Virus genome (UHGV): UHGV-1468954
Strand: one strand, 5' to 3'
Length of the DNA: 30,750 nt
Source: a virus
The notes beneath the pieces were generated by a model, which was not told where the DNA came from, searched no databases, and saw nothing but the letters and a program-made list of their open reading frames with translations. Positions 25,718 through 27,379 of the stretch are shown here, piece after piece. The position numbers and the translations under genes were made by a program. Position 1 is the first letter of the stretch. Every line of letters starts with the position of its first letter.

Positions 25718-25785
25718 TATCACCGCTAGAGGTAAAATAGTCAACACGCACGGTGTTAGATATTTATCCCTTGCGGTGATAGATT
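25718..25785. promoter_or_regulatory. Right operator oR1-oR2-oR3 with divergent pR (minus) and pRM (plus)
   Basis: oR1 25718-34 TATCACCGCTAGAGGTA; oR2 25742-58 CAACACGCACGGTGTTA; oR3 25765-81 TATCCCTTGCGGTGATA. pR is TTGACT-17-GATAAT on the minus strand; pRM is TAGATA-17-TAGATT with a leaderless cI start. Confidence 0.85.
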
Positions 25786-25791
25786 TAACGT

Positions 25792-26505
25792 ATGAGCGCA
25801 AAAAAGAAACCGTTAACACAAGAGCAGCTTGAGGACGCACGTCGCCTTAAAGCTATTTATGAAAAAAAGAAAAATGAGCTTGGCTTATCTCAGGAATCTG
25901 TCGCAGACAAGATGGGGATGGGGCAGTCAGGTGTTGGAGCTTTATTTAATGGCGTCAATGCATTAAATGCTTATAACGCTGCATTGCTTGCAAAAATTCT
26001 CAACGTTAGCGTTGAAGAATTTAGCCCTTCAATCGCCAGAGAAATCTACGAGATGTATGAAGCGGTTAGTATGCAGCCATCACTCAGAAGTGAGTATGAG
26101 TACCCTGTTTTTTCTCATGTTCAGGCCGGGATGTTCTCGCCTGAGCTTAGAACCTTTACCAAAGGTGATGCGGAGAGATGGGTAAGCACAACCAAAAAAG
26201 CCAGTGATTCTGCATTCTGGCTTGAAGTTGAAGGTAATTCCATGACCGCACCAACAGGTTCCAAGCCAAGCTTTCCTGACGGGATGTTAATTCTTGTTGA
26301 CCCTGAGCAGGCTGTTGAGCCCGGCGATTTCTGCATAGCCAGACTTGGTGGTGATGAATTTACCTTCAAGAAACTGATCAGGGATAGCGGTCATGTGTTT
26401 TTACAACCACTAAACCCACAGTACCCAATGATCCCATGCAATGAGAGTTGTTCCGTTGTGGGGAAAGTTATCGCCAGCCAGTGGCCTGAAGAGACGTTTG
26501 AGTGA
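25792..26505 (+). CDS. cI: CI repressor (lambda immunity)
   Basis: 237 aa; near-identical to lambda cI (memory) with a few substitutions (for example S-A-KKK at the N-terminus, GVNAL, KILNVS, SGHVF, C-terminal ETFE). Confidence 0.9.
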
Positions 26506-26571
26506 TATATGTGAAATGCATATATTGATATAAATGCAGCAATATCAAATAGTTAAAAGGTTATATTTTTA

Positions 26572-26952
26572 ATGAATGATCTTGATAAGAAAAAGTACGA
26601 CCAAGTTATTGATTCTGTGAACTTCGCCCTTAGATCGTTGTCAGAGTTATTCGAAGCCCATGGAATGCATGGGATGTATGATCTAACGAATCCAAGCCTT
26701 GATGAGCTAAAATTAGTGTTTACAAGGATGAAAAACGGAGTTGACTCTATTGCTCAAAGCTTTGAGCATATGGTAGAGACAGCAAAGGATATGGATGCCG
26801 CAAGTGCAAGCATAAATGTTATGAACATCAAGCAAGGATTGATGTATGCTGAATCACTATTGCTTGCTGTAGAGAAATTAGACTATGATAAATGTGTGGA
26901 AGCAAATACGCAGATAAAAACCCACGATCTTCCACCAACCCAATGGCCTTAA
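26572..26952 (+). CDS. Hypothetical protein (126 aa) at the rexA/rexB position downstream of cI
   Basis: Same strand as cI, 66 bp downstream after an AT-rich spacer; visibly AT-rich coding sequence; predicted soluble and helical; no family recognised. Confidence 0.6.
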   Translation: MNDLDKKKYDQVIDSVNFALRSLSELFEAHGMHGMYDLTNPSLDELKLVFTRMKNGVDSIAQSFEHMVETAKDMDAASASINVMNIKQGLMYAESLLLAVEKLDYDKCVEANTQIKTHDLPPTQWP

Positions 26953-27021
26953 TAGTAAATCAAGATTTCATATAGTCTATTTGAACTAGGCTAGTACCAT
27001 AAAATAAACCGAGGAAACGCA

Positions 27022-27123
27022 ATGAAAACCATGTCCACTCTGCACAAAGATGCAATGACCCTGAGATCTCTCATTAACGAGATTCTGGCTCGCTCGTCAG
27101 CACACACCAAAAAAGCTGCATAA
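27022..27123 (+). CDS. Small ORF (33 aa) downstream of orf126
   Basis: MKTMSTLHKDAMTLRSLINEILARSSAHTKKAA; GAGGAA 5 nt upstream of the ATG; followed at 10 nt by an intrinsic terminator. Below the ORF-track size cut-off. Confidence 0.4.
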   Translation: MKTMSTLHKDAMTLRSLINEILARSSAHTKKAA

Positions 27124-27132
27124 TGCCTACAT

Positions 27133-27160
27133 AACCCGGCCTCATCGCCGGGTTTTCTTT
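27133..27160 (+). terminator. Intrinsic terminator closing the cI-orf126-orf33 unit (tImm-like)
   Basis: AACCCGGC-CTCATC-GCCGGGTT followed by TTCTTT. Confidence 0.65.
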
Positions 27161-27316
27161 GCCTCACGATCGCCCCACCTAAAAACACATAACCAATTGT
27201 ATTTATTTGAAAATTAATAGATACAACTCACTAAACATCGCAATTCAGATCTCTCGATCACCTTCCCAATCCACACAACCCTGCAAAAAATAAATCTATA
27301 TAAAAAACATACAGAT

Positions 27317-27379
27317 AACCATCTGCGGTGATAAATTATCTCTGGCGGTGTTGACACACATACCACTAGCGGTGATACT
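27317..27379 (+). promoter_or_regulatory. Left operator oL3-oL2-oL1 and promoter pL
   Basis: oL3 27317-33 AACCATCTGCGGTGATA; oL2 27337-53 TATCTCTGGCGGTGTTG; oL1 27361-77 TACCACTAGCGGTGATA. pL is TTGACA (27351-56), 17 nt, GATACT (27374-79). Confidence 0.85.

Follow-up and report, generated by a model that had tools for sequence, protein, structure and literature searches.

Position-8 variants in oR1 and oL1 of an imm-lambda module are probably separate, common polymorphisms of natural lambdoid phages

The closest described systems to the locus treated here are the immunity module of phage lambda (NC_001416) and those of wild phages such as HK97 (AF069529), HK244, HK542, CL707, mEp234 and mEp332. 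HK244, HK542, CL707, mEp234 and mEp332 correspond to the EF120455-61 records, the set of Degnan et al. 2007, which the title of that paper and the records present as wild phages with lambda immunity specificity. Single base changes in lambda operators are known to matter: the mapped virulence mutations of oR1 are v3 at 38007 and vC1/se109b at 38009, the same site as vs387, and the mapped operator mutations of oR2 are v1 at 37979 and another at 37985 (PMC3349717). The subject of this analysis is the imm-lambda region of UHGV virus genome UHGV-1468954, in which operators oR1 and oL1 both carry the same base change relative to lambda; the whole stretch of 30,750 nucleotides is referred to below as the window. 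The two variant alleles, oR1-A and oL1-A, are probably separate, common standing polymorphisms that recombine freely within an ordinary imm-lambda module that has retained lambda immunity.

The window is placed in the imm-lambda class by its tripartite OR and OL, whose three 17-bp sites apiece are spaced as in lambda and overlap the pR/pRM and pL promoters, by a lambda-type CI (232 of 237 residues identical to lambda CI) and by a lambda-type Cro, divergent from pR (64 of 66 residues identical to lambda Cro). The region lies in reversed orientation relative to the standard lambda map, and its six operators are as follows.

25718-25734, minus strand: oR1, reads TACCTCTAGCGGTGATA; variant base at 25727 (T on the plus strand, A in the operator sense)
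25742-25758, minus strand: oR2, identical to lambda
25765-25781, minus strand: oR3, identical to lambda
27317-27333, plus strand: oL3, identical to lambda
27337-27353, plus strand: oL2, TATCTCTGGCGGTGTTG, identical to lambda (G at position 8)
27361-27377, plus strand: oL1, reads TACCACTAGCGGTGATA; variant base at 27368 (A)

The lambda reference annotates operator-r1 as TACCTCTGGCGGTGATA and operator-l1 as TACCACTGGCGGTGATA. Each window 17-mer differs from its counterpart by one mismatch, a G-to-A change at lambda bases 38005 (oR1) and 35600 (oL1), and both changes fall on position 8 of the non-consensus half-site (hereafter 8'), adjoining the central base pair. The initial annotation, made from the sequence with remembered lambda operators, had claimed the same G-to-A change at the same half-site position in both operators. 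Base-by-base comparison with NC_001416 confirms this: the remembered operators match the annotated ones, the alignment shows that the variant bases are not wild-type, and the operators it had called wild-type (oR2, oR3, oL2 and oL3) are all identical to lambda. It was also right that CI departs from lambda CI at a few residues, with five substitutions found (T2A, I54V, K70N, Q200H and G236E in mature numbering; 98% identity). At up to 3 mismatches, the oR1 17-mer has 4 matches in the window against a chance expectation of 0.04. Gap-free 100-nt alignments to lambda contain 2 mismatches in OR and 7 in OL; outside the operators, changes lie in the pR discriminator (one base, 25714), the pL spacer (27357 and 27359) and the pL discriminator (27380 and 27382).

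Allele frequencies in natural imm-lambda modules carry most of the argument. oL1 is flanked by polymorphisms within 12 bp on both sides, which precludes 28-mer seeds; IMG/VR was hence scanned by pattern, with each operator written with R at position 8. Matches came in scan order rather than ranked by similarity, and the IMG/VR counts given here and below refer to the matches listed: they describe samples rather than totals, in which the loci lack phylogenetic independence and laboratory lambda appears in repeated copies. Among them oR1-A is the majority allele (80 of 116 loci), oL1-A occurs in 37 of 107 loci, and an A at position 8 of oL2, where the window has G, in 28 of 107. Exact 17-mer matching gave 82 loci with both operators, distributed over the oR1/oL1 haplotypes as A/G 40, A/A 18, G/G 14 and G/A 10; the 18 A/A doubles compare with 19.8 expected under independence. 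With mismatches tolerated, 85 loci yielded an oR1 by oL1 table with rows 16, 11 (oR1-G) and 40, 18 (oR1-A), an odds ratio of 0.65 and a Fisher p of 0.46, that is, no excess co-occurrence of oR1-A and oL1-A in a test without phylogenetic correction. Frequencies of ~0.69 for oR1-A and ~0.35 for oL1-A lead one to expect A/A in roughly one of 4-5 modules, and it is observed about that often. Since both A alleles are common and unassociated, a module with both is ordinary. A similarity-biased sample, comprising the best 80 of 439 IMG/VR relatives by closeness of CI, ten named phages and the window, contains all four haplotypes as well (A/G 57, A/A 13, G/G 11, G/A 6). Among 5,426 complete Escherichia coli genomes, megablast with 55-nt queries centred on the variant base, such that each seed spans that base, found the oR1-A context in 179 and the oR1-G context in 385.

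Named phages display the same spread. In a comparison with ten named relatives, oR1/oL1 is G/G in lambda and HK544, A/G in HK97, HK244, HK542, CL707, mEp234 and PhiR5_2, G/A in SfI and ev099, and A/A in mEp332 and the window, and the double variant is thus already in GenBank. The GenBank annotation of HK542 and mEp234 reads "similar to coliphage lambda PR with 1bp mismatch", and that mismatch is the oR1 variant base. Both variants are already known from published phage genomes including HK97, from the wild imm-lambda phages of 2007 and from hundreds of E. coli prophages. The initial annotation had taken the parallel change to suggest selection on repressor affinity or an immunity variant; this is unsupported, each allele being common, the two being unassociated and all four haplotypes existing in named phages. 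Megablast of the region against GenBank phages retrieved the "immunity region" records EF120455-EF120461. A separate GenBank entry, MW057783.1 ("Campylobacter phage CJLB-4", 48,361 bp), aligns to the query just as lambda itself does; its rex genes, cI and cro-like regulator lie at coordinates resembling those of lambda, and the entry possibly represents contamination by lambda DNA.

The idea of selection thus loses the pairing of oR1 and oL1 as its signal; what stands of it is a single position that varies in three operators whose other bases hardly vary at all. Across 116 OR and 107 OL regions, the six operators are nearly invariant base by base except at position 8 of oR1, oL1 and oL2, and at these three sites all eight allele combinations are present. 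The three operators share the core CTGGCGGTG (YCTGGCGGTG, which becomes YCTAGCGGTG in the variant). The oL1 site occurs in all four combinations with a pL-spacer polymorphism 11 bp away, as does the oR1 site with a polymorphism 13 bp away, which points to recurrent mutation or very short exchange tracts. Something specific to position 8 is thus at work, which could be a relaxed constraint, biased mutation or repair, or selective tuning.

The position of the variant is compatible with relaxed constraint. Lambda oR1 spans 37998-38014, which places 38007 and 38009 at positions 8 and 6 of the consensus half-site. In a comparison covering the mapped oR1 and oR2 sites, the variant at 38005 coincides with no mapped CI-escape site; it mirrors v3 on the non-consensus side. 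The window variant resembles v3 and vC1 in being a single oR1 base change, and v3 also in lying at half-site position 8. It differs from both in location and effect: v3 and vC1 strike the consensus half-site and abolish sensitivity to CI, whereas the change at 38005 belongs to the other half-site and is carried by wild phages that lysogenise normally. The N-terminal arm of CI (STKKKP) contacts guanines at the consensus half-site through Lys3 and Lys4 (PMC5222340; PMC11893012, which cite Clarke et al. 1991 and Beamer & Pabo 1992). In the six non-consensus half-sites of lambda, position 8 reads G, C, T, G, G and T and is the most variable inner position. According to its title, Sarai & Takeda 1989 found an asymmetric reading of the two half-sites by CI. 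In both pR and pL the variant base belongs to the spacer (roughly -18) rather than to a hexamer.

Under the favoured reading, that of separate standing polymorphisms that recombine freely, the window just happens to have A at both sites. Position 8' would be weakly constrained, because lambda itself carries G, C or T there, because the guanine contacts of the CI arm lie on the consensus side and because G-to-A swaps a purine for a purine. The change would then have little effect on the affinity of CI and Cro, the switch between them would operate as in lambda, and the phage would be homoimmune with lambda. The observations proper are the allele frequencies, the finding that the alleles are unassociated, the occurrence of every haplotype and the difference from the classical virulence sites. 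The compatibility of A/A phages with lambda immunity is a prediction that draws on phages of Degnan et al. 2007 with these alleles, as that paper's title and the records describe them.

Several points weigh against this reading. Simple neutrality gives no obvious reason why the sole common operator polymorphisms should hit the identical position in three operators when other positions presumed to be soft do not vary. Alanine at residue 2 of CI, in the DNA-binding arm, shows strong linkage to oR1-A (oR1-G with Thr2 14 and Ala2 22, oR1-A with Thr2 1 and Ala2 79; p=1e-7, r2=0.27), and this r2 is higher than for closer sites, the two positions being 71 bp apart. No CI or Cro affinity value for the 8' G-to-A change was found in Moroni 2007 or Lagator 2017. 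The library of Lagator 2017 holds only G32T, a G-to-T change, at the 8' base, in double mutants whose effect signs were read as lowering CI binding. Homoimmunity of A/A phages, in turn, leans on a title and GenBank records, and the frequency samples are phylogenetically non-independent, with laboratory lambda repeated among them. As for the Ala2 association, plain linkage is the simplest reading, because the sites are 71 bp apart, because copies of laboratory lambda recur and because Ala2 CI is found with every operator haplotype, G/G included (loci L019, L043, L046 and L053). Sedhom & Solomon 2023 was set aside as an affinity source, since it deals with operators of Stx phages and is not relevant here, and the variant 17-mers had no literal occurrence in the open papers searched.

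A site-specific mutation or repair bias would account for the recurrence of the same base in another way. A hypermutable C, or Vsr repair acting on the T:G mismatches of CTAG/CCAG heteroduplexes, would create and reshuffle the base independently of its flanks. All three polymorphic operators have the identical context GCCAG on the consensus-half strand, where the change is CCAG to CTAG, and the four combinations with polymorphisms 11 bp (oL1) and 13 bp (oR1) away are what such a process would leave. Very-short-patch (VSP) repair, which first came to light in crosses of lambda cI, also works on sequences that match in 4 of 5 bases, CTAG among them; the oR1, oL1 and oL2 site, CCAG/CTAG, is such a 4-of-5 match to the Vsr motif. 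However, none of the three sites is the canonical Dcm sequence CCWGG (they read CCAGA or CCAGT), and canonical Dcm-driven deamination was rejected on that ground as the source of the C-to-T change. Moreover, the allele promoted by VSP repair would be the G of lambda, and not the A that is in the majority at oR1. We consider this explanation unlikely; it is compatible with standing polymorphism rather than a replacement for it.

Adaptive tuning is quite unlikely in our judgement. It holds that selection maintains the 8' A alleles of oR1, oL1 and oL2, which would slightly weaken CI binding or shift the CI/Cro balance operator by operator, and thereby set prophage stability and the induction threshold, perhaps in co-adaptation with T2A. 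The intermediate frequency of the same position in three operators whose other bases are nearly all fixed is what it would predict; that position 8 can matter for CI follows from v3, the virulence site at the mirrored position of the consensus half. The CI arm contacts guanines near the operator centre, and oR1-A is strongly linked to Ala2 within that arm. Yet the oR1, oL1 and oL2 sites show no association with one another, Ala2 CI occurs with every operator haplotype, and sites 71 bp apart should be linked even in the absence of selection, a linkage that the repeated laboratory copies inflate. Clarke et al. 1991 reportedly found that residues 1, 2 and 6 of the CI arm tolerate any amino acid, and the literature consulted supplied no affinity value that would support a shift. 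A fuller version of the idea is distinctly improbable: a balanced G/A polymorphism at the CTGG-type half-sites of oR1, oL1 and oL2, kept by selection as a three-site dial, would set operator occupancy, looping and the induction threshold across hosts, partly co-adapted with CI residue 2, and laboratory lambda (G/G/G, Thr2) would be an atypical setting of it.

A new immunity specificity, in which paired operator changes and CI substitutions make the phage heteroimmune to lambda, is very improbable. Both primary operators and the CI arm do differ from lambda. Against this, CI is 98% identical to lambda CI with one of its five substitutions in the N-terminal arm (T2A), and presumably none of the five falls at a base-contacting position. 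Four of the six operators are identical to lambda. Known heteroimmune lambdoid phages, by comparison, have many altered operator bases and an altered recognition helix. The suggestion of an immunity variant in the initial annotation finds no backing here either: the same alleles occur in phages that the title and records of Degnan et al. 2007 assign to lambda immunity, mEp332 has both of them, and the site is not a classical virulence site. A sequencing or assembly error in the window deserves next to no credence, as the same bases recur in hundreds of independent assemblies and in phage genomes of the Sanger era.

The proteins and promoters of the switch carry further differences from lambda that recur in natural populations. 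CI Ala2 was found in 101 of 116 loci, with the Thr2 of lambda in the minority, and K70N occurs in most wild relatives of a sample picked for closeness to the window CI. I54V is rare; among the best 80 of 439 IMG/VR relatives and the named phages it was seen in the window and locus L012 only. Cro differs from lambda Cro by K39N and V55I, both of which recur in many wild relatives. V55I is mostly accompanied by M12I, and the pairing of K39N with V55I occurs in the window and loci L012, L016, L017 and L055. The promoters, with coordinates for pR, pRM and pL carried over from the annotated HK244 and CL707 records by gap-free alignment, are as follows.

25709..25744, minus strand: pR promoter; -35 TTGACT at 25739-25744, -10 GATAAT at 25716-25721, +1 at 25709
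25757-25762 (-35) and 25780-25785 (-10): pRM, overlapping oR3
27351..27386, plus strand: pL promoter; -35 TTGACA at 27351-27356, -10 GATACT at 27374-27379, +1 at 27386

The pR discriminator reads GATTGC in the window and GGTTGC in lambda (G-5A, at 25714), and the pL discriminator AAACAC against the GAGCAC of lambda (changes at 27380 and 27382). The pR change is present in roughly one locus in three, and the bases that lambda has at 27380 and 27382 in pL are in the minority (12 of 107 and 38 of 107 loci). A G two bases 3' of the -10 hexamer stabilises open complexes via sigma region 1.2, and the kinetics of pR and pL may differ from those of lambda.

The module sits in a mosaic genome. From left to right, the region contains cro, OR (25718-25781), cI, two small cargo open reading frames (ORFs), a terminator-like hairpin, OL (27317-27377) and an N-like gene.

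25491..25691, minus strand: cro, 66 aa, from the ORF call and a match to Pfam PF09048 (Cro, E=1.3e-34)
25792..26505, plus strand: cI repressor, 237 aa, helix-turn-helix and S24 peptidase, with PF01381 and PF00717 matches
26572..26952 (126 aa) and 27022..27123 (33 aa), plus strand: cargo ORFs in the position of lambda rexAB, from the ORF call
27133..27160, plus strand: terminator-like hairpin, CCCGGC...GCCGGG followed by a T run, read from the sequence

The hairpin is positioned analogously to lambda Timm, and "Timm" features are annotated in related GenBank records. Searches of Pfam and PADLOC gave no match and no known defence family for the 126-aa and 33-aa cargo ORFs; the cassette (26572..27123) is also present in 14 complete E. 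coli genomes and IMG/VR loci L015 and L065. The rexAB site has been described as a hotspot of mosaic diversity with defence genes such as rexAB and bstA (PMC8585504). The closest E. coli genome match to the region has 98.2% identity over 97% of its length, which tells against the window being a copy of a catalogued genome. Window positions 1-23175, which hold virion and early-right genes, are 95-97% identical to the P22-like podoviruses HK620, CUS-3 and vB_EcoP-611R6. The window is an HK620/P22-like mosaic phage with an imm-lambda cassette, an instance of ordinary lambdoid mosaicism, and the cassette therefore sits in a virion background other than that of lambda or HK97.

These findings bear on how laboratory lambda is regarded. 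Among the IMG/VR matches listed, it departs from the consensus for its own immunity module: at oR1 8', CI residue 2 and the pL discriminator its allele is the minority one, and it looks to be in the minority at CI residue 70 too, there only in the sample picked for closeness to the window CI. Because it carries minority alleles at these sites, quantitative models of the lambda switch may describe an atypical allele set. One base that is polymorphic in three otherwise frozen operators also offers, ready-made in nature, a test of the change in affinity that the switch can bear. The finding itself has little weight as a discovery, and would have moderate weight only if position 8 is truly a functional dial in binding and induction.

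Comparison with known systems places the window close to several phages while it is identical to none. A close relative in cro-OR-cI is IMGVR_UViG_3300010280_000018 (loci L012 and L135), 99.8% identical over 1100 nt, which shares Cro K39N and V55I, CI substitutions including I54V and Q200H, and both A alleles; it differs in having Gly236 in CI where the window has Glu, and the likeness ends just past cI, beyond which lies another cargo cassette. mEp332 (EF120456) shares oR1-A and oL1-A, CI T2A and K70N and the cro/OR/cI/cargo/OL/N layout, but has oL2-A, a change in oL3, another in the oR1-oR2 spacer, five more CI substitutions and a 1038-nt ORF as cargo in the rex position. HK97, HK244, HK542, CL707 and mEp234 have oR1-A and CI T2A in common with the window. 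Most of these five carry K70N as well, HK244 and HK542 being the exceptions; Cro K39N is common to the window, HK97 and mEp234; and the other OR operators are lambda-like in HK97, HK244, HK542 and mEp234, with one oR3 change in CL707. They are set apart from the window by oL1-G, by other cargo genes and by other alleles of the flanking N and cII genes. Lambda shares with the window the six-operator architecture, spacing and promoters, with four operators identical, and differs in having G at 38005 and 35600, Thr2 and Lys70 in CI, and rexA/rexB as cargo.

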